From SAR86 cluster bacterium (GTDB lineage Bacteria > Pseudomonadota > Gammaproteobacteria > Magnimaribacterales > TMED112), in NCBI GenBank assembly GCA_023703535.1, contig CP097967.1:796156-860155 (forward strand): a stretch of DNA of 64,000 nucleotides. The letters run 5' to 3'. The position numbers and the translations under genes are program-made. Under the pieces are notes generated by a model. It saw only the letters and a list, made by a program, of their open reading frames with translations, did no database searches and was not told where the DNA came from. This document shows, in pieces, positions 46,326-63,427 of the stretch (positions are counted from its first letter, which is position 1; every line of letters starts with the position of its first letter).

Positions 46326-47075
46326 ATGAATAATACAATCTGCATAATACCGGCTAGGATGGGCTCTTCAAGATTCCCTGGGAAAGCTTTAGAAAAGATT
46401 TGTGATATTGAAATGCTTCATCATTGCTTTATAAGGGCAAAGTTAGCAGAATGCTTTTCCGATATCTACATAGCTACTCCAGATCAGGAAATTCATGATT
46501 TTAGTAAATCTATTGGTTGCAAATCTATAGATACTAAAGATACTCATACAAGATGTACCGAAAGAATAGCTGAAGCAATTACAAAAATTGATGATTCTTT
46601 TGAAAATGTTGTACTTTATCAAGGAGATGAGCCTTTATTTTCTCCTGAAATTTTGAAAATGCTTGCAAATTACATTTCGAATAATGCTGACAGAACAGTT
46701 ACTCTTATGGATGAGATCTCAGAAGAACAAGCCGAAGATTTAAATAATCCAAAAGTAGTAGTTGATCTAAATAATTATGCTGCATTCTTTTCTAGAGCTG
46801 CAATACCAGGATCTCTTAAAGGTCATAGTGAAAAGTTCTTTAAACATATAGGAGTTGTAGCTTTTAAGAAGTCTCTTCTTTATGAATATGCCAATATGGC
46901 TGAGGGTCCTTTAGAACGTGCAGAAAGTATCGATATGTTAAGATTCACTGAACATAGTGTTCCAATTAAAATGCTTTTATGTGAATCTAAAACAATAGGT
47001 GTTGATACGCCTAAAGATTTGGAAGATGTAGAAAAGCTTATGGTCAATGATAGTTATTATTTAAGGTATAAATAA
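46326..47075 (+). CDS. kdsB: CMP-Kdo synthetase-family cytidylyltransferase
   Basis: IIPARMGSSRFPGKAL, QGDEP, LERAESIDMLR, GVDTPKD. Confidence 0.88.
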   Translation: MNNTICIIPARMGSSRFPGKALEKICDIEMLHHCFIRAKLAECFSDIYIATPDQEIHDFSKSIGCKSIDTKDTHTRCTERIAEAITKIDDSFENVVLYQGDEPLFSPEILKMLANYISNNADRTVTLMDEISEEQAEDLNNPKVVVDLNNYAAFFSRAAIPGSLKGHSEKFFKHIGVVAFKKSLLYEYANMAEGPLERAESIDMLRFTEHSVPIKMLLCESKTIGVDTPKDLEDVEKLMVNDSYYLRYK

Positions 47076-47076
47076 A

Positions 47077-47955
47077 ATGGCAAAAAAGGTATTAGTTGTA
47101 GGTGGCTCAGGTTTCTTAGGAAGCCATGTTGCAGATGAACTTACTGAGAAAGGTTATGAAGTAACTATATTCGATCAGAAAAAATCAACTTGGATAAATG
47201 ACAATCAGAAATTTATAGAAAGCGACTTACTTGACAGAGAACATGTAATTAAAAGTCTAGAAGGATTTAACTTTGTCATTCATTTTGCTGGTATCGCAGA
47301 TATTGGAGAGTCAAAAGAAAAACCGCTTGAAACTATCGAAACAAATATTATTGGGACAGCAAATCTTCTTGAAGGATGTAGAAAAAATAAAATTGAAAAA
47401 TTTATTTTTGCTTCATCTGTCTATGTATTCAGCAAATATGGTTCCTTTTATGGAAAATCAAAACAGGCCTGTGAATTACTGATTGAGGAGTATCAAAATG
47501 AGTTTAACCTCGACTATATTCATGTTAGGTATGGCTCTTTATATGGTCCTAGAGCGCAAGAATGGAACGGTTTAAAAAAATACATATCAGAAATTATAAA
47601 AAATAAACAAATAGATTTTTCAGGAAATGGTGAGGAAAAGAGAGAGTACATTCATGTTAAAGATGCTGCAATTATGACGGCAAGTCTTTTAGAGAGCGAT
47701 GAAAAAAATATTGCTGTGAATATTACAGGCCATCAAGTAATAAGCACCTTGGATTTATTTAAATTAATCTTTGAGGTACTGCAACTTGAAGAAAAGATTA
47801 ATTTATCAAAAGAATCAAATGTTGTTTCTCATTACAAAATTAGCCCATATAGCTTTCAACCTAAAGAATCAAAGAAACTTGTTCCTAAAAAATTTATAGA
47901 TATTGGCCAAGGAGTATTAGAAATAATTCACGAAATAGAGGATTCTAAGAATTAG
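47077..47955 (+). CDS. NAD-dependent epimerase/dehydratase
   Basis: GGSGFLG, HFAG, ASSVY, YGKSK, RYGSLYGP. Confidence 0.88.
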   Translation: MAKKVLVVGGSGFLGSHVADELTEKGYEVTIFDQKKSTWINDNQKFIESDLLDREHVIKSLEGFNFVIHFAGIADIGESKEKPLETIETNIIGTANLLEGCRKNKIEKFIFASSVYVFSKYGSFYGKSKQACELLIEEYQNEFNLDYIHVRYGSLYGPRAQEWNGLKKYISEIIKNKQIDFSGNGEEKREYIHVKDAAIMTASLLESDEKNIAVNITGHQVISTLDLFKLIFEVLQLEEKINLSKESNVVSHYKISPYSFQPKESKKLVPKKFIDIGQGVLEIIHEIEDSKN

Positions 47956-48409
47956 ATTCTCTTAATTCCAAAACATAATCACTACAAACACCAAAAATTT
48001 CTTTATCTAATTTTATTTTTGAAACTTCCATATCCCATTCAGGCATCACCAAAATCGAGTTTTTCAGAAGTTTTTTTCCAGGATAAACCCATACAAAATT
48101 CTTAGAAGTTAGGGTGTAGTCATCTTCTTGATGCCAGAAATAATTTGCATCTTGAAATAAGTTGATATGGTTTAGCGCCTCTAAATCTTTGCAATGAATC
48201 CAAAACCTATCAATGCTATCAAGTAAAAAGTCTTTTGATATTGGATATTGATTATAATCGTGTCCCAAGAAAAGGTTATTACTCTCATCACATCTTAGAT
48301 CAATTTCAACATCGAAACCTTTTTCTAAAGCCTCACAGATTTGATCAGGATTATTTTCTTTATCTTTGTCAGGTCCTTGAAATAGACCCCGATGAGCTAT
48401 GAATTTCAA
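47945..48409 (-). CDS. PLC-like/glycerophosphodiester phosphodiesterase-like small protein
   Basis: IAHRG, EN, GFDVEIDL, LGHD, WIHCK, GVCSD. Confidence 0.75.
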   Translation of the reverse strand: MKFIAHRGLFQGPDKDKENNPDQICEALEKGFDVEIDLRCDESNNLFLGHDYNQYPISKDFLLDSIDRFWIHCKDLEALNHINLFQDANYFWHQEDDYTLTSKNFVWVYPGKKLLKNSILVMPEWDMEVSKIKLDKEIFGVCSDYVLELRESNS

Positions 48410-49776
48410 TTTTTAAAGTGATTATGATAAAAATCTAAATCTTCAGGTGTACCTAAGCCCCACATTTCTTCAACATCATAAATTTTTATCTTTTTCTTAT
48501 CTTCAATAGCTTGATTAAAGACAGGGCAAACATAGAATTCGTTATTTACACGTATGTCTTTTTGTATCATATCTTCAGCATATTTCACATAATCAGATCC
48601 TTTGCTCCAATAATAGACCCCAACAGTTGCATCTTCAGAAATCACTTGCTTTTCTGCAACTTCAGTTACAAATCCATCGTCACCTGATTTTGCATAAGAC
48701 CATTTTGGATGAGTTGCCTTAAAGGTTAAGATTCCTCCGTCTACTTTGCTTTCAGACATGTTGTACATGGTGTTTGAAGCATTCCATTTAATGTATTGAT
48801 CAGAATTAGCTATAACTAATGGATTGTCATTGTTTATAAATTCTTTAGCTAATAGTGTTGTGCAAGCTGCACCCTCAGTAACTCCGCTTATTTCAATTAC
48901 CTCACAATTAGGTCTTATGGCTTTCAAAAATGATTTCATATTATATTTTTCATTATGTTCTTTCTGAATAATGAATATGAATCTACCCTCTATAGCTAAC
49001 GACTCAACAACAACCTGTATCATTGGTTTGCCAAAAACTTCTATTAACGGTTTAGGAAACGTATATCCTGCTTGTGCAAACCTTGAGCCTGCTCCAGCGC
49101 ATGGAATAAGAACATTTATATTAGGATCAGTCCAAATTTGGTTCATGCTGCTATTATCAAACTTTTTAAGATAATTTGGTAGATTCTTCTCGACGAGATC
49201 TCTAGGATTTTTAACGGCAAATAGATTAGCTCCAGAATCTAGCGCTCCTTTTCTTCCAACAAAGGAATCCTCTATTATTACTGTTTGTTTGGGTGTAACT
49301 CCTGCTTTTAGCATGCACTGCCAATACATCTCAGGATAAGGTTTAGGAAATTTTACATCATCATTACTCACAAAATAGTCAACATCATTTATTACATCAA
49401 TTTTCTGGAGCATTTTTTCTACTGTTGATCGAATGCTATTACTTGCGACCATTACCATATAATCCTTCGAAACTTCTTTAACGAGCTCTGTAATACCCTC
49501 AATTCTAATATCAATCTCATCAAGTACTTCAATGGTTCTTGTTTGCTTCTCTTCCCATATTTCTTTAAAAAACTTTTTATCTAAACCTTTTTCTTCATTA
49601 AGAATCTCAAGCTTTCTTTTAGTTGGTAGTCCATCATATTTTTCAAGATGCTCCTCGTAAGTGATAGATATATTAAATTTAGCTAATGATTTATTAAGTG
49701 CTTCGAAATGAAGCATTTTAGACTCCATTAGAACGCCATCAAGGTCGAAAATAACTAATATATCTTGGTTTTTCAT
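48406..49776 (-). CDS. HAD phosphatase plus sugar nucleotidyltransferase fusion
   Basis: N-domain FDLDGV...KPYP...IEDS; C-domain IPCAGAGSRF, FPKPLI, TEGAACT, NSDQ, GLGTPED. Confidence 0.88.
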   Translation of the reverse strand: MKNQDILVIFDLDGVLMESKMLHFEALNKSLAKFNISITYEEHLEKYDGLPTKRKLEILNEEKGLDKKFFKEIWEEKQTRTIEVLDEIDIRIEGITELVKEVSKDYMVMVASNSIRSTVEKMLQKIDVINDVDYFVSNDDVKFPKPYPEMYWQCMLKAGVTPKQTVIIEDSFVGRKGALDSGANLFAVKNPRDLVEKNLPNYLKKFDNSSMNQIWTDPNINVLIPCAGAGSRFAQAGYTFPKPLIEVFGKPMIQVVVESLAIEGRFIFIIQKEHNEKYNMKSFLKAIRPNCEVIEISGVTEGAACTTLLAKEFINNDNPLVIANSDQYIKWNASNTMYNMSESKVDGGILTFKATHPKWSYAKSGDDGFVTEVAEKQVISEDATVGVYYWSKGSDYVKYAEDMIQKDIRVNNEFYVCPVFNQAIEDKKKIKIYDVEEMWGLGTPEDLDFYHNHFKN

Positions 49777-49850: not shown

Positions 49851-50819
49851 GTGAAATTTGGTCTAATTATCCAAGGCCCTCTATTATCAATAGGTAGAGG
49901 TGTAAGTTCGTACAAAAAAAAGGCAGAAACGAGCGAAAATGAAATCATTAAACACCAATGTGATGAAACAATAATTTCTAATATTGAAAACTATGGAAAT
50001 TTGTTCGAGAAAATAATTATTTCTACTTGGAAAGATGAAAAGATCTCAAAAAAATTATCAGAATATATAAAGTCTAAAAATAATGTTGAAATCTATCAAT
50101 TTTCCAAAAGTGATGTTCCAGAACTGCCAAAATTAAAAGTGCCATCTTCTTGGAGCAAAGAGATGAGCTCTATTATGAATGTAAACAATAATTTAAATCA
50201 GTACACAGGATGCAAGTTGGGGTTGGTGAAATTAAAGGATGTTGATTTTGTTATAAGAGTAAGGACTGATCAAGAAATTAATATACAAAAATTAAAGGAA
50301 TTTATATTAGAAAACCCAAAAAAGATCGTAGTTCCTGGAATATTTTTTGAAAATTATATATATCAAATTGCGGACTTTTATTTTGGTGGCAGTTATAAAA
50401 ATATTCTTAATTTTTTTGAAGCATGTTCAAAAAATATTTTTGATTTTTCCCCACATATTAATCCGATATCTTGTCTAGCAAATAGTAAATACCTTGATGA
50501 ATTAAATATGAATTCTGAGGTACTTTATTATTCAAAGGAGTCTTTTCAGTACAAAATTATGCAAAATTTCGTAATTAGTAAGGCATTGTTACCAAGTCCC
50601 AGCAGCATTTATCAAAAAATTTCTTGGCGAGGAGAAAAGGCTGGAACAGAGTGGAAAAATCAAAATAAAAACATATATTTCTATGAAAATTTCTCAGATA
50701 TTAAACAATTGGTATTGCCTGAGTCTAATAGAATAATAGATTCAAAACTTTATAGCTCTAAATCAAACTTTTTTACTAAAGTACTAAGAAGATTAATTAA
50801 ATTAGAATTATTCAAATGA
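49851..50819 (+). CDS. WavE-like LPS synthesis protein
   Basis: LIIQGP, IISTW, NNN..Q, RVRTD pattern; GTG start. Confidence 0.65.
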   Translation: MKFGLIIQGPLLSIGRGVSSYKKKAETSENEIIKHQCDETIISNIENYGNLFEKIIISTWKDEKISKKLSEYIKSKNNVEIYQFSKSDVPELPKLKVPSSWSKEMSSIMNVNNNLNQYTGCKLGLVKLKDVDFVIRVRTDQEINIQKLKEFILENPKKIVVPGIFFENYIYQIADFYFGGSYKNILNFFEACSKNIFDFSPHINPISCLANSKYLDELNMNSEVLYYSKESFQYKIMQNFVISKALLPSPSSIYQKISWRGEKAGTEWKNQNKNIYFYENFSDIKQLVLPESNRIIDSKLYSSKSNFFTKVLRRLIKLELFK

Positions 50820-52561
50820 AAGAATATTTAATACGTATTTACTCATTACTTTATGAAGATAAAAAAAGACTTCCATTACTGCTTGTACTGTTTTTACTTA
50901 CTTCATTTTTTGATGCGTTAAGCCTAGCGATTTTATTTCCATTTATACAAATACTTGTGAATTTTCAGGATTTTCAATCTAGTTATGGATGGTTTTTTGA
51001 GAGCATAAACCTTACTTCGAAATCGGAAATTATTACATTCTTAGGCATTACACTTGTTTCACTATTCATTATTAAAGCTCTTGCTTCAATCTTGGTAAAC
51101 TGGGCCATTTTAAGAATAACCTACAATAGACAAGCAAAGATTAAAACATCTCTACTACATAAATACCTTAATATGCATTACAGAAAGTATATAGAAGGAA
51201 ATAGTGCCAGATACATTCAGATGATTCAAACAATGAGTATGCAATTCATTAAAGTTTTGCAAGGATTTTTAAGGCTTCTTTCAGATGGTCTTATTTTTCT
51301 TTCGATAGTAATTGTTTTAGCTATTGTTGAAGGCCCACTTTTAATTTATGTCGGCGGCATGATGATAGTTCTTCTTTTAATATATGACATTTTTTTCAAA
51401 AAACTTTTAGATAGCCAAAGTAGAGCTATTACTGACTCTAGTGTACAAGTCACAAAAACAGTAAATGAATCAATCCAAGGTCTTAAAGAAATTAAGATTC
51501 TTGGAAAACAAAACTTTTTTGAAGATATTCTTAAGGAAAATGTAGACATTTATGCAAAAAATAATATTTATGCTGATCTAATAAGAACGCAGCCAAAACA
51601 CATTATTGAGTTGATATTTGTAATTGCTTTTACTTTGGCAGTTGTGTTCTTTACTCCATTACAAAACGATTTTCAGAGCTTAATACCCACGCTTGGAGTA
51701 TTTCTCTTTGCTGCAATTAGGTTAATGCCTACCCTTAATCAAATGCTTGCTTCTGTAAATGTTCTTAGAATAGGCTACTATCCCACTACCCTTCTTTTTG
51801 AGGACATGACAACAAAACAAGACCTTGAAGAAGATGATTATAAAGCAAATGTCTTAAAAGATGGCTTCACCTCCATGCTTTTGAAAAATGTATTTTTCTC
51901 ATATAAAAATGATAAAGAACATCAATTAAATGGTATTTCATTACAGGTTGATAAAAATAAATCGATAGGTCTTTTTGGACAATCTGGATCAGGAAAAACA
52001 ACTCTTGTCGACGTGATGTTAGGTCTACTAGAGCCAAGTAAAGGCGAGATTCATTTAAATAACAAAATTGTAAAAAATAATAAAGAATTTAGAAATTTAG
52101 TGGCATATATTCCACAAGATATTTTCATAATTAACGACTCAGTAAAAAACAATATAACTTTAACTGGGAGGGATGAAGTTATTGATGATGTTTTATTAGA
52201 AGATGTAGTGTTGAGATCAAGACTTAAAGAGGTTATCAATAATCTCCCTGAGGGAATTAATACAAATATTGGAGAAAGAGGAGTAAAGCTTTCTGGAGGT
52301 CAAAAACAAAGAATTGCTATAGCTCGAGCACTCTATAACAAAAGAGAAGTTCTTATTATGGATGAGGCAACTAGTGCTTTGGATAATAATACGGAAAAAG
52401 AAATAATTGATGAAATAAGAAAGCTAAAAGGTAAAGTTACTATGGTAGTAATAGCGCATAGGCTTACAACACTGCAGCACTGTGATGAAATTTATGAAAT
52501 TAGTAATGGAAGAATTAGTGAAAAATATAACTATGAAGACATAAGTAAAAGTAAAAAATAA
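50816..52561 (+). CDS. ABC transporter permease/ATPase (MsbA/PglK-like glycolipid flippase)
   Basis: TM domain, GQSGSGKT, LSGGQ, MDEATSALD, IAHRL. Confidence 0.92.
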   Translation: MKEYLIRIYSLLYEDKKRLPLLLVLFLLTSFFDALSLAILFPFIQILVNFQDFQSSYGWFFESINLTSKSEIITFLGITLVSLFIIKALASILVNWAILRITYNRQAKIKTSLLHKYLNMHYRKYIEGNSARYIQMIQTMSMQFIKVLQGFLRLLSDGLIFLSIVIVLAIVEGPLLIYVGGMMIVLLLIYDIFFKKLLDSQSRAITDSSVQVTKTVNESIQGLKEIKILGKQNFFEDILKENVDIYAKNNIYADLIRTQPKHIIELIFVIAFTLAVVFFTPLQNDFQSLIPTLGVFLFAAIRLMPTLNQMLASVNVLRIGYYPTTLLFEDMTTKQDLEEDDYKANVLKDGFTSMLLKNVFFSYKNDKEHQLNGISLQVDKNKSIGLFGQSGSGKTTLVDVMLGLLEPSKGEIHLNNKIVKNNKEFRNLVAYIPQDIFIINDSVKNNITLTGRDEVIDDVLLEDVVLRSRLKEVINNLPEGINTNIGERGVKLSGGQKQRIAIARALYNKREVLIMDEATSALDNNTEKEIIDEIRKLKGKVTMVVIAHRLTTLQHCDEIYEISNGRISEKYNYEDISKSKK

Positions 52562-53430
52562 TGAGAGCCTTCTGTTACATTCAAAAAAAATACTATAAGT
52601 GGAAGATTGATCTAATAGCAGATGATTTATTTAAAGGCGAAAAGAAAAATTGTGAAATTGAAATAGTTTATCCAGAAAATTTTTCATTAAATACTCTTTC
52701 CAAAAAGAAGAAATATGATTTTCTAGTTGGCTGCAATGTTGATGATTTTAAATTCCAGCTACTGTATAAATTTTTAGATTTCGATAAATTTATTACCTTT
52801 GATGAGGGTCAAAGAAATATAAATGAAAATGATAAATATTATTCCAAGAATTTTTCTTTTGAAAATCAAAAAAAGTTTTATTTTTTGAATAAAATTTGTG
52901 GCTTTCCATTACCTTTTGGAAAGCTCCTGGAGAAAAGTGATAAACACTATTCGTTTTTTGACCCAAAAATTTTTAATCATCCTATTAAATCGACCACGTT
53001 TCTTAAGAAGAAAAAAATTACAAAAAAGATTACAAAGATATTCTTTGGAGTAAGTAGCAATTGGGTTTTTAGTCATAGAGAAGATCTTTTGAATAAACCA
53101 AAAATCATAGAGAAGAAAATAAATGAAGCAGCTTTGAAAATAAATAAACTGTGTCCTGATCTATACATCCCCCACCCCAGAGAAGATGAGAGAATACTAG
53201 AATTACTTAATGAGAATATTACTGTTGTAAATTGTCCAAATGGAAGTGAGGATTTTGTTAATAAATTAGCTTTAAATAATGAAATTGAGGTATTTACAGA
53301 AAAATCAGGGATAGTTTTTGATCTTAACAAAAAAATAAAAATTTCTTTTATTGATTTATTTAATAGGTTTAGTAAATCTGAATACGACAAGTTTAAAAAT
53401 CAATATAAAGAATTTAAGAAAAGCAATTAA
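52561..53430 (+). CDS. GT52-like CMP-ulosonate (sialyl-type) transferase
   Basis: TFDEG (D/E-D/E-G motif) and PHPRE (HP motif), as in Lst-type sialyltransferases. Confidence 0.7.
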   Translation: MRAFCYIQKKYYKWKIDLIADDLFKGEKKNCEIEIVYPENFSLNTLSKKKKYDFLVGCNVDDFKFQLLYKFLDFDKFITFDEGQRNINENDKYYSKNFSFENQKKFYFLNKICGFPLPFGKLLEKSDKHYSFFDPKIFNHPIKSTTFLKKKKITKKITKIFFGVSSNWVFSHREDLLNKPKIIEKKINEAALKINKLCPDLYIPHPREDERILELLNENITVVNCPNGSEDFVNKLALNNEIEVFTEKSGIVFDLNKKIKISFIDLFNRFSKSEYDKFKNQYKEFKKSN

Positions 53431-53674
53431 ATCGAAATGTTAGGTAAACTGTTGTAAATTGTCCAAATGGAAGTGAGGATTTTGTTAATAAATTAGCTTT
53501 AAATAATGAAATTGAGGTATTTACAGAAAAATCAGGGATAGTTTTTGATCTTAACAAAAAAATAAAAATTTCTTTTATTGATTTATTTAATAGGTTTAGT
53601 AAATCTGAATACGACAAGTTTAAAAATCAATATAAAGAATTTAAGAAAAGCAATTAAATCGAAATGTTAGGTAA
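53221..53674 (+). repeat. Exact tandem duplication, 2 x 227 bp (53221-53447 and 53448-53674)
   Basis: Copies compared base by base with no mismatch seen; unit spans the last 69 codons plus stop of the GT52-like gene and the start of the next gene. Confidence 0.95.
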
Positions 53675-54542
53675 AGATAGTAAAAAAAATATTCAATTTC
53701 CCGTACAAAAACAAGGCACACCAAGTGTAGTAGTTTTAGAAGACTTTTTTAATGAAGAATTTATAAGAGAAGCTAATAATGATTTTGAAGAGTTTATAAA
53801 AAAATCATCTGAGGTCGATTTTCTTAGTTTTGGAGAAACACGAAAAAATCTATCTTCAAGAGGATCTAGATATGAGGAAATTGTCAAATCGTCAAAATCT
53901 ATCAACAAAATTTGTGAATATATTAAGTCTGAGGAATTCTTTAAAAAATGTATTAAAAATTCGACTGAAGCATTCAATAAAAAAGGATTAAAAATAAAAA
54001 TTCCAAAATTTAATCAAAATTCCTTTGACTCTCTTAGGTTTGCTAAAAAATTCTCTATCTTATGGGCACTTAATAAGCTTCGCTTTGTTTTGTTTCGAAT
54101 TCCCTTTTTTGGAGACTTATTTGAGAGATTAAGTTTATCTATTTTTGGAAACGTAGCTCCTACTATTGATGTTGCACAATCTGCAATGGGTTATGAAGTT
54201 GGAATGCATACTGATAGCAGATTTAAACTCATGGCCGGAATTATTTATTTAAATACAACAAAAAATGATAGTGACGGGGAAACAGAGTTTTGGAGCTCCG
54301 AAGGTCTTTCAAACCTTGAAAATCAAAAAAGATATCCAGATAAGGAGGATATTAACAATTCCAAACTTTTAATGAGTGTTAAACCTAAGGCGGGAAGAAC
54401 TGTTTTATTCATAAACTCAAATGATGCTTATCATAGTGTTAAGAAATTTAAAGGAGATAAAAGGAACATCATATATTTTTCCTTTTCTGTTCCTATTTTA
54501 GATAATATCTGGAAAACAGATTTTAAAGTTAAATCTCTTTAA
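53664..54542 (+). CDS. 2OG-Fe(II) oxygenase superfamily protein
   Basis: HTD, GIIYLN, GETEFW, AYHSV, R (HXD...H...R triad). Confidence 0.8.
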   Translation: MLGKDSKKNIQFPVQKQGTPSVVVLEDFFNEEFIREANNDFEEFIKKSSEVDFLSFGETRKNLSSRGSRYEEIVKSSKSINKICEYIKSEEFFKKCIKNSTEAFNKKGLKIKIPKFNQNSFDSLRFAKKFSILWALNKLRFVLFRIPFFGDLFERLSLSIFGNVAPTIDVAQSAMGYEVGMHTDSRFKLMAGIIYLNTTKNDSDGETEFWSSEGLSNLENQKRYPDKEDINNSKLLMSVKPKAGRTVLFINSNDAYHSVKKFKGDKRNIIYFSFSVPILDNIWKTDFKVKSL

Positions 54543-55365
54543 TTGCTTCAAGCATGTGTTGATGAACAACATCCTCTTTGCCTACCAGATCATTAGCTAA
54601 ACAAAAGCCTATGACTGCCTGCATAAGATTCATTCGTGAGCCATCAATACAATTAAGAGAAAGAGAGCTTGCATCTCTTAATAGTTTTGAAGGACTGTTT
54701 ATATAATTAACATCGAATAACAGAGCTTCTTTGTTAATTAAACTTAATTGACTAGTTGAAAGAATAGAATCTTCATTATTTCCATCTTTACCTATAGAGG
54801 TGCAATTTATAAGAACATCATAGCTTCCTATATCAAAATTAAGCGAACCATAATCTTTAAAATTCATTCCAAAATCGGTAAATAAACCAGAAATTTCCTG
54901 ATTTCTTCCATAAACATCTACATCAAAATTTTTATTTTGATTAGAAAGTTGATAGCACAATGATTTTGAAACTCCTCCAGTTCCAAGAATGCATACCCTT
55001 TGAATATCTAAATCTTTTTTTACAGAACTAATTGATTCGAGTAAAGCTAAGGTATCAGTATTAGCTGCTGTAAACTTGCCTTCAGAATTAAAGAAACAAT
55101 TTTTTGGCTCAATAAAACTACCATTATCATCTGCAAAATAATTAGCAACAACTTCTTTAAGTGGTGCTGCTACGGCTCCACCAATAAAATCAGGTTTTGT
55201 TGTTTCTGAATCTAAGAATTCTATTGCATCGCTTTCATGCTCTATATCTACAGTAGTCATTTCTGCATCAATATCGAGCGCATTAAAAGCAGCATTCCAT
55301 AAAATAGGAGAACGAGCACCCTTTGAAACATCTTTCCCTATTATTACCGCCCTCTTCATCGTCAA
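54529..55365 (-). CDS. Divergent shikimate dehydrogenase-family protein
   Basis: RSP, PLK, NTD, LGTGG, MNLMQA; several substrate residues changed. Confidence 0.8.
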   Translation of the reverse strand: MTMKRAVIIGKDVSKGARSPILWNAAFNALDIDAEMTTVDIEHESDAIEFLDSETTKPDFIGGAVAAPLKEVVANYFADDNGSFIEPKNCFFNSEGKFTAANTDTLALLESISSVKKDLDIQRVCILGTGGVSKSLCYQLSNQNKNFDVDVYGRNQEISGLFTDFGMNFKDYGSLNFDIGSYDVLINCTSIGKDGNNEDSILSTSQLSLINKEALLFDVNYINSPSKLLRDASSLSLNCIDGSRMNLMQAVIGFCLANDLVGKEDVVHQHMLEAIKEI

Positions 55366-56237
55366 ATTACTTCTTTAGAAACTGCTTTTGCAACGTTATC
55401 CATTTTTTTCATGAGAGAATTAAACGTTTCAAAGTTGATTGGTTGCAAAGGATCAACAGCAGAATTTTCTGGATCTGGATGAACCTCTAACATTATTGAA
55501 TCAGCTCCAGATGCAATTGATGCAAGTGTCATTGGTTCGACCCAATCACGCCAGAAGGTTGCATGGGATGGGTCTGTAGCAACTGGAATATTTGTTATTT
55601 CTTGTGTTGCTGGAACAACTTGTAAATCCAATGAAAATCTAGAAGTTGCCCTGTGAGTATGTGGAATTGACATTCCTCTCTCACATAAAATTAATTTTGT
55701 ACAGCCCTCCTTAAGAGCGTACTCAGCTGCTCCCAACCAATCTCTTAATGAGGCACCATAATGTCGTTTAAGCATTATAGGGAAACCTGTCTTTGCTGAT
55801 TCTACAATTAGAGGATAATTTTGCATGTTTCTAGATCCAATCTGAAGAATATCTGTAGCATCGCATACTGCATCTAAATGTTTTTCTTCCATAACTTCAG
55901 TTATGACAGGTATTTCAACCTCCTCTCTGGCTGATTTTAACCACTTTAGACCATCTAAGCCCGTTTCTGTATATTTCTCATTTCTATAAGGAAAACTTAA
56001 AGGTTTGAAAGCTCCACCTCTTAGAAAACTAGCACCTGAAGCTTTTACTGACTTCGCAGTTTCTATGATGAGTTCTTCTGACTCAACCATGTTTGGACCT
56101 GCCATAACAGGAATCTTTTTACCATTAAAAACAACACCTGCTATTTCGAAAGGTTCTTTTGAAAAATTAGCTACTAAAGGTATTTTGGACTTTATATCCT
56201 CTTCAGTTATATCTTTTCCGGGAAACTTGTTATACAT
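55362..56237 (-). CDS. Divergent type I-beta DAHP/KDO8P synthase-family protein
   Basis: AGPNMVES, RGGAFKP, QIGSRNMQN, LKR, LCERG, DPSH, EVHPDP, AVD; no regulatory domain. Confidence 0.9.
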   Translation of the reverse strand: MYNKFPGKDITEEDIKSKIPLVANFSKEPFEIAGVVFNGKKIPVMAGPNMVESEELIIETAKSVKASGASFLRGGAFKPLSFPYRNEKYTETGLDGLKWLKSAREEVEIPVITEVMEEKHLDAVCDATDILQIGSRNMQNYPLIVESAKTGFPIMLKRHYGASLRDWLGAAEYALKEGCTKLILCERGMSIPHTHRATSRFSLDLQVVPATQEITNIPVATDPSHATFWRDWVEPMTLASIASGADSIMLEVHPDPENSAVDPLQPINFETFNSLMKKMDNVAKAVSKEVI

Positions 56238-57291
56238 CTTGCCCTAGTTTAGCTGATCTCACATCATCAGAAAATGAAATTATTGAATTATTCTCCACAG
56301 ATGAATATAAAGCATGAATATATTTTATTGAATCTAAACTGGATTCTGCACTTGTAGGAAAAATAATTTTTCCTGAATCATTAAAATTTTTACTAATTTC
56401 TTTAAGCATATGATAATGACCGTTACCATAACCATTTTTTACAGTTTCTGAGTTCTCTTTAAGTTCATTTGATAGCTCCACTCCATCAAGCTTAACTCTT
56501 GTAAGCTCATTTAAAGCGATACCTCCAACTGAAATTTGATATTTATCAGTCACCACTTCTAATGATGCTGAAAAATCTTCAGGTCTCACAGCGGTCGTTG
56601 CTTCAATTGTAAAAAATCCACCCTTTAAAAGTGTTCCAGACGCAACAAAAGTATCCTCAGCCTCAAGTTTATTATTGATATTTCCAGAGAAACCAGATAA
56701 AAATTGCGGAGGGCCAAATAAATAAAATAGAGCATCAATATGGTGTATTGCTTGTTGGCTAATTACTCCACCATCTGTTTTCCATCTCCCGTGCCATTCA
56801 TCATTGTAATAATCTTGAAACCTACACCACTGCAATTTAACACTTGCTGAAATGATTTTTCCAAAATCATTTTGTGAAAAGAGATTTTCAATATATTTAA
56901 TAGGTTTATTCAGTCTGTTTTGAAATACACCTCCGTAAAGAACATTTTTTTCTTTAGCAAGTGCCATATTTGCAACAACATCCTCTACGTTAAGACCTAT
57001 AGGTTTTTCACACAGAACATTAACTCCATTTTGTAAAAGTACCTTTGAGTTTTCAGCATGACTGCCTGATGGAGTAGTAATTATTGCAATATCAACATCA
57101 TCTTTGCTTACCTCATCTATTGAAGCAAAGGTCTTACCTGAATTCTCTTTTTCCCATTTGCTCCTTGATTCTGCATACTGGTCTATGCCTACAGAAAAAA
57201 TATATTCATCAGATAAATTTTCTTTAATAACTTCAGCATAATGTTGAGCTGCTCGCCCTAAACCTATGAAAGCTAGTTTTAATTTACTCAA
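56230..57291 (-). CDS. Gfo/Idh/MocA oxidoreductase (WlbA/WbpB-like)
   Basis: GLGRAA, CEKP, QNR, WCRFQDYY..WHGRWKTDGG, QAIHHID. Confidence 0.85.
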   Translation of the reverse strand: MSKLKLAFIGLGRAAQHYAEVIKENLSDEYIFSVGIDQYAESRSKWEKENSGKTFASIDEVSKDDVDIAIITTPSGSHAENSKVLLQNGVNVLCEKPIGLNVEDVVANMALAKEKNVLYGGVFQNRLNKPIKYIENLFSQNDFGKIISASVKLQWCRFQDYYNDEWHGRWKTDGGVISQQAIHHIDALFYLFGPPQFLSGFSGNINNKLEAEDTFVASGTLLKGGFFTIEATTAVRPEDFSASLEVVTDKYQISVGGIALNELTRVKLDGVELSNELKENSETVKNGYGNGHYHMLKEISKNFNDSGKIIFPTSAESSLDSIKYIHALYSSVENNSIISFSDDVRSAKLGQDV

Positions 57292-58609
57292 ATTTCACCT
57301 CAAACTTACTCATTTCTTCTTCAGTGCTTATTTCAATCATATCAGCTTGATTAAGTTGGGGGATAAGATTTACCCTTTTTTGTAAAAAGTTCCCATTCCT
57401 TAAATCTGATGCATTAAGTGTGCACCCAAAACCAAATGGACAAATCATCACTGATGATTCCTCCAATTCTCTTGGTAATAGCTGATTATTTATTGCTATT
57501 TCACTTTCCTCTCCTCTTGTAAAACATATTCTTTTTTCTTCATGGCTATAAAGTGTTGGTAGAAATGCTGATTCGTAAAAACTATCTACCAAATTTTTAA
57601 AACTACTCTGATCTCTAAAAGGGTAGTTAACAGAAGAAAGAGTAATAGAATTAGGTATATATTTTTGATTTTCAAAATCTAAAAGACAATCTTTTAATAC
57701 ATCATTTAAGGAGGTGTCATAGTCTTTTGTGCTTCTATCAAAAATATTGAGTCCAGATTCTTCTGCTTGCTTCAAAGCCTTTTTATCAATTCCACAAAAT
57801 ACTATGTCTTCAAAAACCGAACTTTTTTTTGCATCACTTATAACTTTTCGCAAAAGACCAAGACGAAAGTTGTCATATTTTTCTCTATCAAAAATAATAA
57901 GTATGTCTTTTGTTTTTCCTTTATATTCACAAAGATTTTCACTCTTAAATTCGTCTGCTTCCATTATTTGAACAATTTTTTTAGCTCTTTTTTTATCTGC
58001 TTCCTGATGTATGCCATGATGATGAAAAACTACTGCATCCGGCTCATATACAATCTTGAGTTTATTCTTTATAACTTCTTTTCCCCAAATTCTGTCCTCA
58101 ATATTAGTCACTTCATCATCGAAACGAAATTTCTCCCAGGTTTTTCTTGTAAATGCTGAGTTGGCGTTGTGAAAAAAAGAATCCTTTTCCTGAACTCTCT
58201 TATCATTTCCAAATGTCAAAAATAAATCCCTTTTATCGAGATAATGTGATGAACTTGTGGGTACTTGCTTTCCATAAACACCCGCAATTTTTTCATCTTC
58301 TAAATCACTTACTAAATTTTTAAGCCAATCTTTCTCTTTGGGAATGCAGTGAGCAGACAAACATATCAGATAATCTCCTGAAGAGTTTTCAATTCCATAA
58401 TTTATTGCGTTTCCTGGTTTAAATTCTTTGAGGGTAACTACTTTTACATTCCATTCTTTTGCTTTTTCAACAGTCTTGTCTGTGGAACAGTTATCTACAA
58501 TAATTACCTCAAAATTTTTGTAATCCTGTTTGAAAATTGCATTTAAACAAATAGAAATCCATTTTTCTTCATTCTTTGTTCTAATTATTATGGAAGCTTT
58601 TTTCATCAT
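57284..58609 (-). CDS. GT2 glycosyltransferase with C-terminal degenerate cytidylyltransferase-like domain
   Basis: SIIIRTKNE, VDNCSTD, LSAHC, NANSA, IEDRIW; C-half has YPFR and IEISTEEE echoing NeuA motifs. Confidence 0.75.
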   Translation of the reverse strand: MMKKASIIIRTKNEEKWISICLNAIFKQDYKNFEVIIVDNCSTDKTVEKAKEWNVKVVTLKEFKPGNAINYGIENSSGDYLICLSAHCIPKEKDWLKNLVSDLEDEKIAGVYGKQVPTSSSHYLDKRDLFLTFGNDKRVQEKDSFFHNANSAFTRKTWEKFRFDDEVTNIEDRIWGKEVIKNKLKIVYEPDAVVFHHHGIHQEADKKRAKKIVQIMEADEFKSENLCEYKGKTKDILIIFDREKYDNFRLGLLRKVISDAKKSSVFEDIVFCGIDKKALKQAEESGLNIFDRSTKDYDTSLNDVLKDCLLDFENQKYIPNSITLSSVNYPFRDQSSFKNLVDSFYESAFLPTLYSHEEKRICFTRGEESEIAINNQLLPRELEESSVMICPFGFGCTLNASDLRNGNFLQKRVNLIPQLNQADMIEISTEEEMSKFEVKFE

Positions 58610-59340
58610 ATTTTCTCTGGTACCGGAGGTAAATTGTCAAAATCATTCTCTTTGATCCATTCGGCTGCCTTATTAGCTAAAAATAAATCAAAATTATTAT
58701 GTATGTCTAACGCTGAAAAGCTTCTATTATCTGTTATCAGCTTAACATTGTCACCAATTCTACGCCCATTCCTCCAAAGGTTTGAACGAGATGCACAAGC
58801 TAACCCAGTATCTTCCCTGTATGATTTTCTTCTAACTTGTCTACTCTCATAAACACTCATCCATTCTTTTAGACGTATTGGATTATTATCAATTACCTCC
58901 CAAAAGTTTTTGTGAGTTTCATTAGCGACGAATACACTCTCTAATTCATTATTTTCTTCAAGTGCATCTATAGCATGATCTATCCATCCATCTCTTCTGA
59001 ACAAATCAGTACATGTTAAAAAAACGCATATATCAAAGCTTTGTTTAAATATTTTTTCTGACTCCAATAAAGAATACTTTAATGTCTCCTCAGTGGTTGT
59101 TAAATCACCTGAAACATCACTAGTACGCAAAAACGGAACTTCTGCACCATATTTTAAAGCAACCTCCCTTATGTCTTTATCGTCTGTAGAAACAACTATT
59201 TTCGAAAGTTTCTTAGATCTTTTAGCTGCCTCGATTGGCCATGCAATTAAAGGATGACCCAAGAATTCTCTTAAATTCTTTTTCTCAAGCCCTTTAGAAC
59301 CTCCCCTTGCAGGGATTATTGCTATACTATTACTCTGCAT
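58606..59340 (-). CDS. Acylneuraminate cytidylyltransferase-family protein (NeuA-like)
   Basis: IIPARGGSKGLEKKN, VVSTDD, GAEVPFLR, LDIH. Confidence 0.9.
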   Translation of the reverse strand: MQSNSIAIIPARGGSKGLEKKNLREFLGHPLIAWPIEAAKRSKKLSKIVVSTDDKDIREVALKYGAEVPFLRTSDVSGDLTTTEETLKYSLLESEKIFKQSFDICVFLTCTDLFRRDGWIDHAIDALEENNELESVFVANETHKNFWEVIDNNPIRLKEWMSVYESRQVRRKSYREDTGLACASRSNLWRNGRRIGDNVKLITDNRSFSALDIHNNFDLFLANKAAEWIKENDFDNLPPVPEKI

Positions 59341-59356: not shown

Positions 59357-60523
59357 ATGATAAGTATAGTAATTCCATCTAGAAATGATGACATTGAAGT
59401 TTTTCAAAAAACCATTAACGCAATAAAAAAACAAACTGTATTGCCAAAAGAAATTATTATTGTTGATTCAAGTACTGATAATTCAATAAAAAACTTTTTA
59501 CAAAAGCAAAAATTAAAGCTAATTAATCTTATTTACAAAAAAATTGATGGGTCATTTGCAGGAAAAAGTACAAATATTGGAATGTCTCTTGCAACACAAA
59601 AGTTTATTGGTTTGCTTGATACCAAAACAATTCCAAATGATACATGGATAGAAAAATACATAAAACAATTGGAAAGAGATAACTCAGATTTGATTTTTGG
59701 AAATACAAAATTCTTCTCTAAAAATAGATTTCAAAAAATACTAAGAATTCTTTCATATGGTGACGCGTCACATGAAACAGTTCCTGGAACTATATTTAAG
59801 CGCAGTAAATTCGGCAAAAAAATGTTTTTCATTGAAAATGTCAGATCATCATATGATATTGAGTGGAGAGAGAGACAAAAAACTCTTTTGAAAACTTCTT
59901 TAGGTAATGAGATTGAAATAGAGTATGGAGAATTTCCAAATTCATTCTTGGATGCTGCAAAAAAATACTTTATTTATAGTTTTTATACTGCAATTGTAAA
60001 TGTTCAAAAGGATGCGAAAGATCTATATTTATCAATTTTTATAATCTTATCCGCATTAGTCATACCAAGATGGAATTTTTTTCTTGAAGGCTGGGATGAA
60101 AATCCGCTCTATATTGCAGATGTAACAAAAAAATACTTTTTATCACTATTGGTAATTTTTTTGAGTTTTTTAATTGCATCAAGATTTTTTCCTAAACAAG
60201 TAGAAAATAGGCTTCCATTTATTACTCTTAAATACACAGTTTTTCTTTTTATCTTTCTTTCTGTTTTTAATTGGAATGCAGTAGTGGCTGACTGGGTAGA
60301 GGATACTGTTTTTTACATTCCACATATCACGAAAATTTTTGTGGTTTTAGTTTTGGTTTCCTCTGTATTGGTTAGAGGACTTTTTAAACCAGTAAGCAAC
60401 AAAGTTAAATTAAATTATCTTCTTCCCTTTAGGTGGTTATTTATTGGCACTATTGGGCTAATACTGGATATTGTTAAAGCTCCTGGTTACATAATAGGTT
60501 CCTTGATTTCAAAATTTAGATAA
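59357..60523 (+). CDS. GT2 glycosyltransferase with C-terminal membrane domain
   Basis: SIVIPSRND, IIVDSS, LLD, followed by several TM helices. Confidence 0.8.
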   Translation: MISIVIPSRNDDIEVFQKTINAIKKQTVLPKEIIIVDSSTDNSIKNFLQKQKLKLINLIYKKIDGSFAGKSTNIGMSLATQKFIGLLDTKTIPNDTWIEKYIKQLERDNSDLIFGNTKFFSKNRFQKILRILSYGDASHETVPGTIFKRSKFGKKMFFIENVRSSYDIEWRERQKTLLKTSLGNEIEIEYGEFPNSFLDAAKKYFIYSFYTAIVNVQKDAKDLYLSIFIILSALVIPRWNFFLEGWDENPLYIADVTKKYFLSLLVIFLSFLIASRFFPKQVENRLPFITLKYTVFLFIFLSVFNWNAVVADWVEDTVFYIPHITKIFVVLVLVSSVLVRGLFKPVSNKVKLNYLLPFRWLFIGTIGLILDIVKAPGYIIGSLISKFR

Positions 60524-61253
60524 AACTTTTTATATCAAGAAACTCTGATTCAATGTTGTAAGATTTAGAAATTCTTTTTGGGATTTTTAATGCTTTAATT
60601 TTTAAGCTCTTTGAAAATGAATTCATAAATCTTAAGAAATTAAGTGGACTCCCATTTAAGTCATTTTTATACTCTTGTAATTGTTGAATTATGTAATCTT
60701 TCACAATAAAAATACTCTGATCTGCTAACCCCTCGTCCCAATTTATTTCTATTTTGTTATCAATTGAGAGATGAATATCCTTAACAAAGTCAGAATTTTC
60801 TTTGAGCACATATTTCACATAAGGATTTTTATCAAATATTAAGGGTACAAAAATGTCAGCACCCTCAGAAATATTTAAATGCTTTTCAAATGCAGATGTT
60901 GAATCGATAATAAAAGTATCGCCCCAGCACACAAATATTAGACTACCATTTGCTTTAAAACTACGTAATCCATCTAAAACAGCTTGTCCATCCCCTGAAC
61001 CAGACTCACTTTCAATGAATTTAATCTTAGATAAAAAATGATCCTCAATATTTTTGTTGAACAATTCTTTTGAAGATTTATCTTTAGGTATTGGTATTAT
61101 TATTGTTTCAAAATACTTATTAACTTCCTCTAAAAGATAATTTATCGCTGCTCTACCATTAATTTTTAGTAGTTGCTTTGGTACTGATGATTTCATTCTT
61201 GATGATTTTCCAGCACATGGAATTATAATTTTTCTCAAGAATCTGATCTCCAT
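60516..61253 (-). CDS. Nucleotidyltransferase (GlmU-N/IspD-like fold)
   Basis: IPCAGKSSRM, PKQL, GDGQAV, WGD. Confidence 0.8.
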   Translation of the reverse strand: MEIRFLRKIIIPCAGKSSRMKSSVPKQLLKINGRAAINYLLEEVNKYFETIIIPIPKDKSSKELFNKNIEDHFLSKIKFIESESGSGDGQAVLDGLRSFKANGSLIFVCWGDTFIIDSTSAFEKHLNISEGADIFVPLIFDKNPYVKYVLKENSDFVKDIHLSIDNKIEINWDEGLADQSIFIVKDYIIQQLQEYKNDLNGSPLNFLRFMNSFSKSLKIKALKIPKRISKSYNIESEFLDIKSFI

Positions 61254-63427
61254 TTCGAGCTATTTGCGCCCATTATTAATGATGAAATTTTTAAATTATC
61301 ATGTTTGCCTGAATCAATAGATTCAAAATCTTCAGCGAGTATTTCTTTAAGATCTAATTGATATAATTCACTCATATTTAACCTTATGTATCTGGAATCT
61401 TGTTTTGATGGAGAATTTGAGATAATTACATCAAAAAGTTCAGGTACCTGAAAATTAAGTTTTCCCTTTTGATTTAAATAAAACCTTGCCTGTTTAATTT
61501 GATCTGCAGCTGTAAATTCTGGCGTTTCATTATCATGATCAATATTTGTTATAAAAAACTTTTGTGCTGAAGATTTTGAAATCTCTTCAGTTAATCCTTT
61601 TGTCCAATAAGTTGGATATAAACTGCTGTATTGAGTACCAGGACCATATATTATTATGTCAGCTTTTCGAACTGCTAAAGCAGTATCTTGGCTAAGGTCA
61701 GGGAATGGTGATGATATATTTTCAAGAAATTGTTTTTTCTTAATAAGCCCTGTTAAAGATTCAAATTGTTTCTCTTCTTCTTCTGATAGTGGGTATGTTT
61801 TATAAAAAATTTCAAAAATTGGTGTTTTTCCCTCATAACCTACAATTTCTGACTCGTCTTTCAGAAGCTTTCCATCCTCTGTAAGACCAAAAAGATAACC
61901 AGCTTCTGATGAATTAAGGAAAACCTCATTTGGCAAATTGAAGGCATCTCTCACCATAAGTTCAACTTTCTTTATATCCCCATATTTATGCTCTAGAGAA
62001 CCATAAATAATATTAGACAAGGCAAAATCTTGGATTTCTAATGATTTATTTTGCTCTTCAGAAATTTTTTTAAAATGTGAAAGCGAATCACTAATTATCT
62101 CTTGCATCTGATAATTCATTTTTTGGTAATAAGGGAAAAACTCTGATTTATAATTTTGATTATCTAAAAGCTTAGAAATATCATTTTTAAAATCAAGAAA
62201 GTCACATGATGTACGGCTTTTAAAAAAATCGAGCCCCTCTCCTTCAGGATAATAAAATTCATATTGAGTTTCTTGGACTTTTCTTAAATCAGAAGGTCCT
62301 AAAATTTTGTAATCAAAAAAAGCTCTTATCGCGCCAGTTGAAAGGCCATCATCATAAGCATTAATAATATTTGTTAAATTTAAATTAACGTCATTTACTT
62401 TTGAAAACTCTCTAAGTCCATCACATAAGTTTATCGAGCCTCTTCCTCCTGAAAATACGACTACATTCAAACCATTTTGATTAATATCATAAAATCCTTT
62501 TTTTCCTTGAATACCATGAAGATATCCTTTGAAAAAATAGCGAAGATTTATTAGAAAATTGTGATAATTAGAATGAAAGAATAAAAAAAATAAGCCTGCA
62601 GTAAACTTTAAATTGTGAGCAAGCAAGTATAAAAACCACCCAACCGAGAATGATTTGAAGTTCTTTTTAAGAAATAATAATGATCCTCTTGTTGAGTAAT
62701 ATAACCATTGTTTATTTGCATATTTATTTTTGCTGCCTGTTTTAGTATCGTGATAACCAATAGCTTTCGGAGTAAAGCGATGAATATTTTTCGCTTTTAT
62801 AGAACGGTACATCAGATCATGATCGTCGTAATAGAGAAAGTAATCTTTATCAAACCAACCAATTTCTTTTTCTATTTTTCTGGAAATTAATACCATACAT
62901 CCATTTAGGGCATCAAGAGTTCTAGCTTCAGAGAATTTTTCGTGATTAGTCTCATTAACACCAATACCCTTTGCTATTGCATAGTAAGGTTTTAAGTCGG
63001 CACCAATAGCATGCAATGTATCCTTATTTTGAAAATAAAATACTTTTCCGCCAACAAAAGTATGTTTTTCTGATTTTTCTGCTTCATTAACTAGCTCAGC
63101 AACACAATCTTTATCAAGTACTACATCTTCGTCCATTTTTAGCATGTATTTCCAATCCTCACGAATAACCTTTAAGGCTTCAATATATGAACCTGATGAA
63201 CCAGAATTTAATTTTAAATCTAGAAGTTTTATTTTTTTGTTATCTATTTCCCTAGAAAAGATTTTTTTAATTTCAGATACTGTTCCGTCATTAGAGTTAT
63301 TGTCTACAACAATTACCTCAAATGAATCCTCTGGATAATTTTGTGAAAGAATGGATTGAATGCTTTCATTGATAATGTACTTTCTGTTATAACTTGCTAC
63401 AACGATGCTAACAAAAGGTTTTTTCAT
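61235..63427 (-). CDS. GT2 glycosyltransferase fused to CofD/YvcK (UPF0052) domain
   Basis: N: SIVVASYN, VVDNNSND, MDED, YYDDHD. C: SGGRGS, YDDGLSTG, GPSDLRK, GPGTQYSSLYP. Confidence 0.85.
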   Translation of the reverse strand: MKKPFVSIVVASYNRKYIINESIQSILSQNYPEDSFEVIVVDNNSNDGTVSEIKKIFSREIDNKKIKLLDLKLNSGSSGSYIEALKVIREDWKYMLKMDEDVVLDKDCVAELVNEAEKSEKHTFVGGKVFYFQNKDTLHAIGADLKPYYAIAKGIGVNETNHEKFSEARTLDALNGCMVLISRKIEKEIGWFDKDYFLYYDDHDLMYRSIKAKNIHRFTPKAIGYHDTKTGSKNKYANKQWLYYSTRGSLLFLKKNFKSFSVGWFLYLLAHNLKFTAGLFFLFFHSNYHNFLINLRYFFKGYLHGIQGKKGFYDINQNGLNVVVFSGGRGSINLCDGLREFSKVNDVNLNLTNIINAYDDGLSTGAIRAFFDYKILGPSDLRKVQETQYEFYYPEGEGLDFFKSRTSCDFLDFKNDISKLLDNQNYKSEFFPYYQKMNYQMQEIISDSLSHFKKISEEQNKSLEIQDFALSNIIYGSLEHKYGDIKKVELMVRDAFNLPNEVFLNSSEAGYLFGLTEDGKLLKDESEIVGYEGKTPIFEIFYKTYPLSEEEEKQFESLTGLIKKKQFLENISSPFPDLSQDTALAVRKADIIIYGPGTQYSSLYPTYWTKGLTEEISKSSAQKFFITNIDHDNETPEFTAADQIKQARFYLNQKGKLNFQVPELFDVIISNSPSKQDSRYIRLNMSELYQLDLKEILAEDFESIDSGKHDNLKISSLIMGANSSKWRSDS

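Follow-up and report, generated by a model that had tools for sequence, protein, structure and literature searches.

A shikimate dehydrogenase-like oxidoreductase with an altered substrate pocket in a putative ulosonic acid cassette of a SAR86 cluster bacterium

In the shikimate dehydrogenase (SDH) family, catalysis is carried by a Lys/Asp pair, substrate recognition depends above all on contacts to the C1 carboxylate and the C4 hydroxyl, and the preference for NADPH is explained by Arg150, Thr151, and Arg154 (PMC7144000). One member of the family, 5-keto-D-fructose reductase, is NADPH-dependent and takes a keto-sugar as its substrate instead of a carbocycle (PMC7954740). Here we describe an SDH-like gene from a SAR86 cluster bacterium, located in a stretch of 64,000 nucleotides (contig CP097967.1, positions 796,156 to 860,155) which we call the window and whose first letter is position 1 in all coordinates below. 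The gene lies on the minus strand at 54529–55359 and encodes a protein of 276 amino acids counted from its ATG. An earlier note, made from the letters alone, had read the protein as an oxidoreductase that does not use shikimate but acts on the product of the synthase encoded next to it; this reading was supported by every computational test that we applied, namely family cut-offs, a phylogenetic tree, synteny, and co-occurrence. Judging from these comparisons, we think it rather probable that the protein is an active, probably NADP(H)-dependent, SDH-fold oxidoreductase which has left aromatic amino-acid synthesis and acts in a cassette that makes a 3-deoxy-2-ulosonic acid and activates it with cytidine monophosphate (CMP). 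As part of the same explanation, the cassette is probably mobile and strain-variable, and its product a sugar acid resembling 3-deoxy-D-manno-oct-2-ulosonic acid (Kdo) or sialic acid and destined for a surface glycan.

The protein matched the Pfam family PF08501 (Shikimate_dh_N) at 29.2 bits, just above the cut-off of 27, and PF01488 at 18.8 bits, under the cut-off of 24.3. An AlphaFold2 (AF2) model built from an alignment of 24 relatives had a mean pLDDT of 94.1 and a pTM of 0.90, and Foldseek matched it to all of the solved SDH classes (AroE, YdiB, HI0607, quinate dehydrogenase, and 5-ketofructose reductase) with a probability of 1.00, TM scores of 0.73–0.81, and identities of 17–24%. In the 24-member alignment, whose sequences were 29–65% identical to the window protein, the catalytic dyad and 26 columns were invariant, and pairwise dN/dS among four orthologues from the genus was 0.13–0.24. 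The model and the alignments together confirmed that the gene encodes a real SDH-fold protein. Its place in the shikimate dehydrogenase superfamily is given by the fold and Pfam matches together with the Lys/Asp dyad, which was invariant in a larger alignment of 144 rows.

The motifs on which the earlier note had relied (ARS, GGAVAAPLK, the Lys of PLK, the Asp of NTD, and a late Gln) were all found in the translation when their coordinates were checked, and alignment with Escherichia coli AroE and 144 relatives upheld its statement that the catalytic pair is kept while the substrate pocket is changed. On the minus strand, the ARSPILW motif (within GARSPILWN) at 55296–55317, with ARS itself at 55309–55317, replaces the SxSPxxH of AroE, and GGAVAAPLK at 55156–55182, which includes the catalytic Lys70, replaces GxNVTxPxK. 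NTD at 55054–55062 holds the catalytic Asp104, invariant in the SDH-like family, and in MNLMQA at 54616–54633 Gln249 (AroE Q244) is kept, and Asn246 stands at the position of AroE Leu241. Relative to E. coli AroE, S14 has become A17, N59 has become A64, and T61 has become A66, whereas S16 (S19), K65 (K70), N86 (N89), D102 (D104), Y215 (Y221), and Q244 (Q249) are kept. The change from SxS to ARS thus removes the first Ser only. Of the seven shikimate ligands S14, S16, N59, T61, N86, Y215, and Q244, three are replaced by Ala in the window protein and four are kept. Two more substitutions, absent from the earlier note, were invariant in the family: H20 to W23 and L241 to N246.

The same pattern extended through the 144 aligned SDH-like members, numbered here as in E. 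coli AroE. Position S14 was Ala and position H/Q20 was Trp in 144/144, L241 was Asn in 144/144, and residue 15 was Arg in 137 and Lys in the other 7 (Arg18 in the window protein). Asn was never found at position 59 (0/144), which held Ala in 104 members, Ser in 22, and Cys in 10; T61 was replaced by Ala in 97 and remained Thr in 45. Retention was complete for S16, K65, N86, D102, and Q244 (144/144 each) and nearly so for Y215 (138/144) and R150 (134/144), the NADPH-type Arg, which is present in the window protein. By these alignments, the catalytic chemistry is kept in the SDH-like family, and the cofactor, NADP(H), is probably kept as well. Given the equivalents of Ser16 and Tyr215, the protein can probably still bind a carboxylate; on the same residue evidence, the carboxylate site survives in part, and the rebuilding has affected the side where the ring hydroxyls are read. 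Since the pocket changes are fixed throughout the family, we concluded that they reflect selection for another substrate, and not decay.

The window protein also stood apart from the named shikimate and quinate dehydrogenases, as it missed every NCBIfam equivalog cut-off for them. The best of these models, NF001316, gave 97.8 bits where 247 are needed; TIGR00507 (AroE) gave 93.5 bits against 200.2, the SD-like model NF009202 (PRK12550) 63 against 306, and the YdiB model NF009390 31.5 against 349. In a quick IQ-TREE maximum-likelihood tree of 77 sequences, 66 members of the SDH-like clade lay on one side of a branch with an SH-aLRT value of 98; across it were E. coli AroE and YdiB, the AroE of the window genome, and other paralogues from genomes that carry the family. 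The phylogeny that the earlier note had proposed as a check therefore separated the clade from AroE and YdiB, the two named classes that the tree covered. A search with the PRK12550 (SdhL-type) profile found no match in 121 genomes of the class to which Marinomonas belongs. When a profile of the SDH-like family was compared with the chains of the PDB, Methanocaldococcus jannaschii AroE (1nvt) scored highest at 169 bits, above 4k28 (127), YdiB (108), HI0607 (107), and 3pwz (71).

A canonical AroE is encoded elsewhere in the same 1.07-Mb genome (C1:13793–14530); it scored better against the aroE model and has SLS, NIT, and the K, N, D, Y, and Q residues. Also outside the window are a housekeeping 3-deoxy-D-arabino-heptulosonate 7-phosphate (DAHP) synthase, KdsA, one dehydroquinate synthase (DHQS), a type II dehydroquinase (DHQase II), and chorismate synthase. 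Marinomonas ostreistagni, Thalassobaculum litoreum, and Prochlorococcus MIT 9302 each have an SDH-like member together with a higher-scoring AroE. By sequence, then, the gene is a true paralogue and not the housekeeping AroE. Among 1.84 billion cluster representatives searched, 460 matched at E ≤ 1e-10; approximately 124 of the best 150 matches contained A-[RK]-S-P-x-[LI]-W-N, and canonical proteins with SxS and NVT appeared only near E 1e-18. The clade is recognizable by that motif, by a residue other than Asn at position 59, by M-N-x-x-Q-A, and by a neighboring DAHP synthase-like protein with KPL[ST]FPY, and the window locus shows every one of these features. There were no genes for 3-amino-5-hydroxybenzoic acid (AHBA) or antibiotic synthesis, the RifI-type context, in the locus, and no aroD or quinate-utilization genes in the operon context of the SDH-like gene. 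A look-up of the protein in the ESM Atlas returned generic "shikimate dehydrogenase family" clusters only.

The SDH-like gene comes last in a run of five translationally coupled genes on the minus strand, each of which overlaps or almost abuts the next. The first of them, at 58606–59340, encodes a CTP_transf_3 cytidylyltransferase (PseF/NeuA/KdsB-like, with the PseF model best) and is predicted to be a CMP-ulosonate synthetase. It is followed at 57284–58609 by a fusion of a GT2 domain with a C-terminal domain of ~200 amino acids. Weak CTP_transf_3 matches in homologues hint that this second domain is cytidylyltransferase-like; BLASTP gave no significant match between it and the separate cytidylyltransferase of the operon (E 0.27). 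The third gene, at 56230–57291, encodes a WlbA-like Gfo/Idh/MocA dehydrogenase; the solved structures nearest to it are 3q2i and 3q2k (E 1e-39), which are WlbA nucleotide-sugar (UDP-sugar) 3-dehydrogenases. The fourth, at 55362–56237, encodes an aldolase for phosphoenolpyruvate (PEP) resembling type I-beta DAHP synthase and having no regulatory domain. This synthase-like protein has GPNMVE, with Asn at the metal Cys, and KPLSFPY where KPRTS would be expected, the phosphate-binding Arg of KPRTS being Leu throughout the synthase-like family. Its TGA stop lies two bases before the ATG at 55359, which is most likely the true start of the SDH-like gene by sequence comparison. We placed the start there because close homologues and the ESM Atlas record all begin at the corresponding MKRAV and because the two preceding codons vary among the genus orthologues; the TTG at 55365, from which the open reading frame (ORF) had been listed with 278 residues, was superseded on the same grounds. 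A scan for promoters and terminators found fewer promoter-like sites than in shuffled sequences and no terminators.

The complete five-gene set, in this order, was also present in a Tara Oceans contig, in two other metagenome contigs (with JGI among the sources), and in a Prochlorococcus assembly, and one more contig had the synthase–SDH pair with the remaining functions scattered nearby. When genomes, one for each species, were scanned by pattern, 80 loci emerged, in which neighbors within 8 kb of the SDH-like gene were identified by tblastn. The carriers were Pelagibacteraceae and other alphaproteobacterial single cells, SAR116, Prochlorococcus, Thalassobaculum, Nisaea, Roseibium, Azospirillum, and Marinomonas, as well as Actinomycetota, Acidobacteria, Uhrbacteria, Nitrospiraceae, and Sulfurovum; Prochlorococcus MIT 9302, Marinomonas ostreistagni, Thalassobaculum litoreum, and Nisaea denitrificans are cultured. 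A cytidylyltransferase gene was found in 70/80 loci, the synthase-like and GT2 genes in 66/80 each, and the Gfo gene in 51/80. Clustering of the ORFs from these loci showed that the five cassette families alone recur; the next families (ABC exporters, TPR proteins, other glycosyltransferases, methyltransferases, and 2-oxoglutarate (2OG) oxygenases) occurred in at most 16 loci. Where both genes were complete, the synthase-like gene directly adjoined the SDH-like gene in 46/52 loci (39 upstream and 7 downstream), and KPL[ST]FPY was present in the synthase-like protein of 52/53 loci. In three genomes of Nisaea and Azospirillum the synthase-like gene was more than 8 kb off, yet was present elsewhere in the genome at 62–63% identity.

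Other layouts were seen as well. In six Nisaea loci the module is smaller: it begins with the SDH-like gene and also contains a short GT2 gene, a cytidylyltransferase gene, and a 2OG oxygenase gene. It lies downstream of a GGDEF gene, and in one complete chromosome the DAHP synthase-like gene is ~21 kb away. A second layout, with the order Gfo, SDH-like, DAHP synthase-like, GT2 fusion, and cytidylyltransferase and with a more distant synthase (38–51% identity), occurred in L053, L057, and L100 (Patescibacteria), L096 (Sulfurovum), L069 (Nitrospiraceae), L045, and L058. 2OG-Fe(II) oxygenases of differing Pfam families adjoin the SDH-like gene in several unrelated loci, one type in 9/80. KdoO is a hydroxylase that acts on Kdo, and by analogy these oxygenases may be hydroxylases that tailor the sugar acid.

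Within the window's own order, the SDH-like gene was found in 6/266 genomes (22 genera): 5/30 of the genus, including the window genome, and 1 of another family. A first sample of 41 relatives had likewise shown, for most genomes, only a weak, AroE-level match to the SDH-like protein. The synthase-like gene was present in exactly the same 6/266 genomes and abutted the SDH-like gene each time. Co-occurrence in the order is complete, in six genomes that are related and do not represent independent observations, and there have been at least two independent gains. The two proteins differed in rate, the synthase-like protein being 57–70% identical across phyla and the SDH-like protein 27–35% in canonical cassettes; to the same relative genome the values were 72% and 44%. 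For coupled genes this gap is unusually large.

From these features we infer as follows which substrate the SDH-like enzyme uses, at which carbon, and in which direction it reacts. The DAHP synthase-like aldolase would condense PEP with an aldose to give a 3-deoxy-2-ulosonic acid; with Leu in place of the phosphate-binding KPRTS Arg across the synthase-like family, the aldose is probably unphosphorylated. In its pyranose form the product would carry the carboxylate on C2, a CH2 at C3, and a carbinol at C4, the same 1,3 arrangement as C1–C2–C3 of quinate and shikimate. Before CMP activation, the SDH-like enzyme would use its Lys/Asp dyad to oxidize or reduce a ring position, C4 or, less likely, C5. 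We favor C4 because C2–C3–C4 mimics C1–C2–C3 of quinate, with C4 at the position which SDH-family enzymes oxidize. The keto group at C2 is not a likely target because the CMP-transferase, which is co-conserved, needs the anomeric C2 hydroxyl. If the WlbA-like Gfo enzyme oxidized and the SDH-like enzyme re-reduced the same carbon, the pair might invert a stereocenter and produce an epimer; the PseF/NeuA-like enzyme would then form the CMP-sugar. In the pocket, Ala at the positions of Asn59 and Thr61 may make space for an exocyclic tail at C6, the invariant Trp23 and Asn246 may be new contacts to the sugar, and Ser19, Tyr221, and Arg/Lys18 presumably hold the carboxylate, although Arg/Lys18 could alternatively pair with another anionic group. 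There is precedent for an SDH fold that handles a keto-sugar in 5-ketofructose reductase (7cok), which was among the best matches.

Several points weigh against this scheme. The Gfo/Idh/MocA gene was missing within 8 kb in 29/80 loci, and the Gfo and SDH-like enzymes may for that reason not form an obligatory epimerizing pair. The redox steps could precede condensation, since the best solved relatives of Gfo act on nucleotide-linked sugars. GT2 enzymes normally take sugars linked to nucleoside diphosphates (NDP), not CMP-sugars, and the GT2 fusion may therefore have another role and the steps another order. The assignment of C4 is an analogy with the chemistry of quinate. The first three of these points lead to the main rival, which we regard as unlikely: that the SDH-like enzyme acts before condensation, on the aldose precursor or on a nucleotide-linked sugar such as the keto product of the WlbA-like dehydrogenase, after which the GT2-fold protein would free the modified aldose for the synthase. 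The closest solved relatives of Gfo, 3q2i and 3q2k, which are UDP-sugar 3-dehydrogenases, fit such a sequence, as does the synthase-like enzyme, which without its phosphate-binding Arg would require a free aldose; NeuC and PseG are precedents for GT-fold hydrolases that free the aldose for NeuB-type synthases. However, the small SDH pocket, which closes on ligands of ~170–250 Da, would need large changes to admit a nucleotide sugar, and no such changes are seen in the AF2 model, which superposes on AroE with a TM of ~0.8. Retention of the carboxylate ligands Ser19 and Tyr221 together with the invariant Arg/Lys points to an acid as the substrate and hence to a step after condensation, and the SDH-like gene is coupled to the synthase gene, not to the Gfo or GT2 genes.

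The descent of both the synthase-like and the SDH-like protein from shikimate-pathway enzymes would also suit a carbocyclic, shikimate- or quinate-like glycan unit made by the pair, with the single DHQS and DHQase II of the genome borrowed as cyclase and dehydratase for ring closure. We judge this very improbable: neither a cyclase nor a dehydratase gene is part of the cassette or found repeatedly around it across the 80 loci, the synthase-like protein has lost the site for the phosphate of erythrose 4-phosphate whereas DHQ synthase requires a 7-phosphate, the shikimate-binding Asn59 is lost and Thr61 is lost in two thirds of the members, and an ulosonate-type CMP-transferase is conserved along with the pair. 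A redundant, back-up AroE or a YdiB-like quinate/shikimate dehydrogenase is a shade less credible again. Databases do label members of the family "shikimate dehydrogenase", and its profile finds a canonical AroE best (1nvt, 169 bits), but the protein falls under all equivalog cut-offs and in a separate clade, the gene is sparse (5/30 genus genomes and 6/266 order genomes), the shikimate ligands are replaced family-wide, and the operon is one for glycan synthesis. Least credible of all, to the point that we give it hardly any weight, is a decaying or non-catalytic paralogue. The weak Pfam score (29 bits) and the faster evolution relative to the synthase partner (44% and 72% identity in the same relative genome) might suggest decay; against it, all sequences of the 24-member alignment agree at the dyad and at 26 columns, dN/dS is 0.13–0.24, the reading frame is intact in every locus, and the AF2 model is confident.

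We conclude that the SDH-like protein is a functional variant within a known enzyme family and that the pathway is undescribed but recurrent; a full-text literature search covering the gene combination, the SDH classes, and heptulosonic acids in capsules found no description of the cassette or of the clade. New here are the residue-level signature of the SDH-like proteins, their separation from AroE and YdiB, their order-wide co-occurrence with the synthase, and the argument for the carbon acted on. Two enzymes annotated as belonging to aromatic amino-acid synthesis appear to have been recruited jointly into glycan synthesis. If so, sugar acids would be a new class of substrate for the shikimate dehydrogenase family, and a new ulosonic acid pathway would stand beside those for Kdo, sialic, legionaminic, and pseudaminic acids. 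The labels "shikimate dehydrogenase" and "DAHP synthase" on the clade (at least ~124 clusters at 50% identity), which inflate shikimate-pathway counts in metagenomes, would then be corrected. Very abundant ocean bacteria carry the cassette in surface-glycan islands that vary between strains, and the surface sugars of such islands are thought to be relevant to recognition by phages and grazers. The chances seem to us about evenly balanced that the clade is a sixth functional SDH class, an ulosonic-acid ring dehydrogenase or ketoreductase, which together with the remodeled DAHP synthase makes an undescribed CMP-activated 3-deoxy-ulosonic acid with which some strains of abundant marine bacteria (Pelagibacteraceae, Prochlorococcus, and SAR116) and many uncultured phyla decorate their surfaces.

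The surroundings of the cassette in the window hold further genes of interest. A 2OG-Fe(II) oxygenase gene at 53664–54542 on the plus strand converges on the SDH-like gene and overlaps its 3′ end by 14 nucleotides; it may encode a tailoring enzyme, and it had no homologue in the 80 loci. At 52561–53430, also on the plus strand, is a gene for a GT52 (sialyltransferase-family) protein, a candidate CMP-ulosonate transferase in the same island and outside the conserved cassette. This gene is directly downstream of a fused ABC exporter (membrane domain plus ATPase; 50816–52561, plus strand), and the two would fit transfer and export of a glycan with a CMP-derived ulosonic acid. The exporter is preceded at 49851–50819 (plus strand) by a 322-amino-acid ORF with no credible Pfam family. 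Farther along, at 48406–49776 (minus strand), is a gene for a 456-amino-acid protein that joins a HAD phosphatase domain to an NTP_transferase (sugar-1-phosphate nucleotidylyltransferase) domain. At 46326–47955 (plus strand), the gene for another CTP_transf_3 cytidylyltransferase (139 bits) precedes that for an NAD-dependent epimerase/dehydratase; the island thus encodes two CMP-sugar synthetases besides the Kdo pathway of the genome. On the other side of the cassette, at 60516–63427 (minus strand), a gene for a 730-amino-acid GT2–CofD fusion overlaps one for a MobA/IspD-like nucleotidyltransferase. The Tara Oceans contig has separate CofD, HAD, GT2, and NTP_transf_3 genes near its cassette, and a second module may thus travel with the island.

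Compared with known systems, the SDH-like protein resembles AroE (1nyt from E. coli, 1nvt from M. jannaschii, and 2hk9 from Aquifex aeolicus), with which it shares the two-domain fold (TM 0.73–0.81), the Lys/Asp dyad, the equivalents of Asn86, Tyr215, Gln244, and Arg150, and the Gly-rich loop. It differs from AroE in its low identity (17–24%) and in S14A, H20W, N59A, T61A, and L241N, of which S14A, H20W, and L241N are fixed family-wide while T61 stays Thr in a third of the members, and its gene is accessory and lies in a glycan operon, with a true AroE elsewhere in the genome. SdhL/HI0607 (1npy), YdiB (1npd and 1o9b), and the Pseudomonas proteins 3pwz and 4k28, presumably of the Ael1 and RifI2 types, also belong to the paralogues of the SDH family that keep the dyad and whose substrates are altered or unknown; in the alignment, HI0607 shares with the window protein an Ala at the position of Asn59. 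We know of none of these types from a CMP-sugar operon. The 5-keto-D-fructose reductases of Gluconobacter and Tatumella (7cok and 7col) have the SDH fold and were among the best matches by both sequence and fold, but they are 22% identical, and their role is catabolic, with a neutral ketose and outside any glycan cassette. In the Kdo (KdsA, KdsC, and KdsB) and NeuB/NeuA pathways, as predicted for the cassette, condensation of PEP with an aldose is followed by CMP activation through a CTP_transf_3 enzyme. The cassette synthase, in contrast, is an offshoot of the type I-beta DAHP synthases and not a KdsA or NeuB, the cassette lacks the phosphatase of the Kdo pathway, and the window genome keeps a separate KdsA. 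In addition, the cassette brings two oxidoreductases, the SDH-like protein and Gfo, which have no counterpart in the Kdo pathway.

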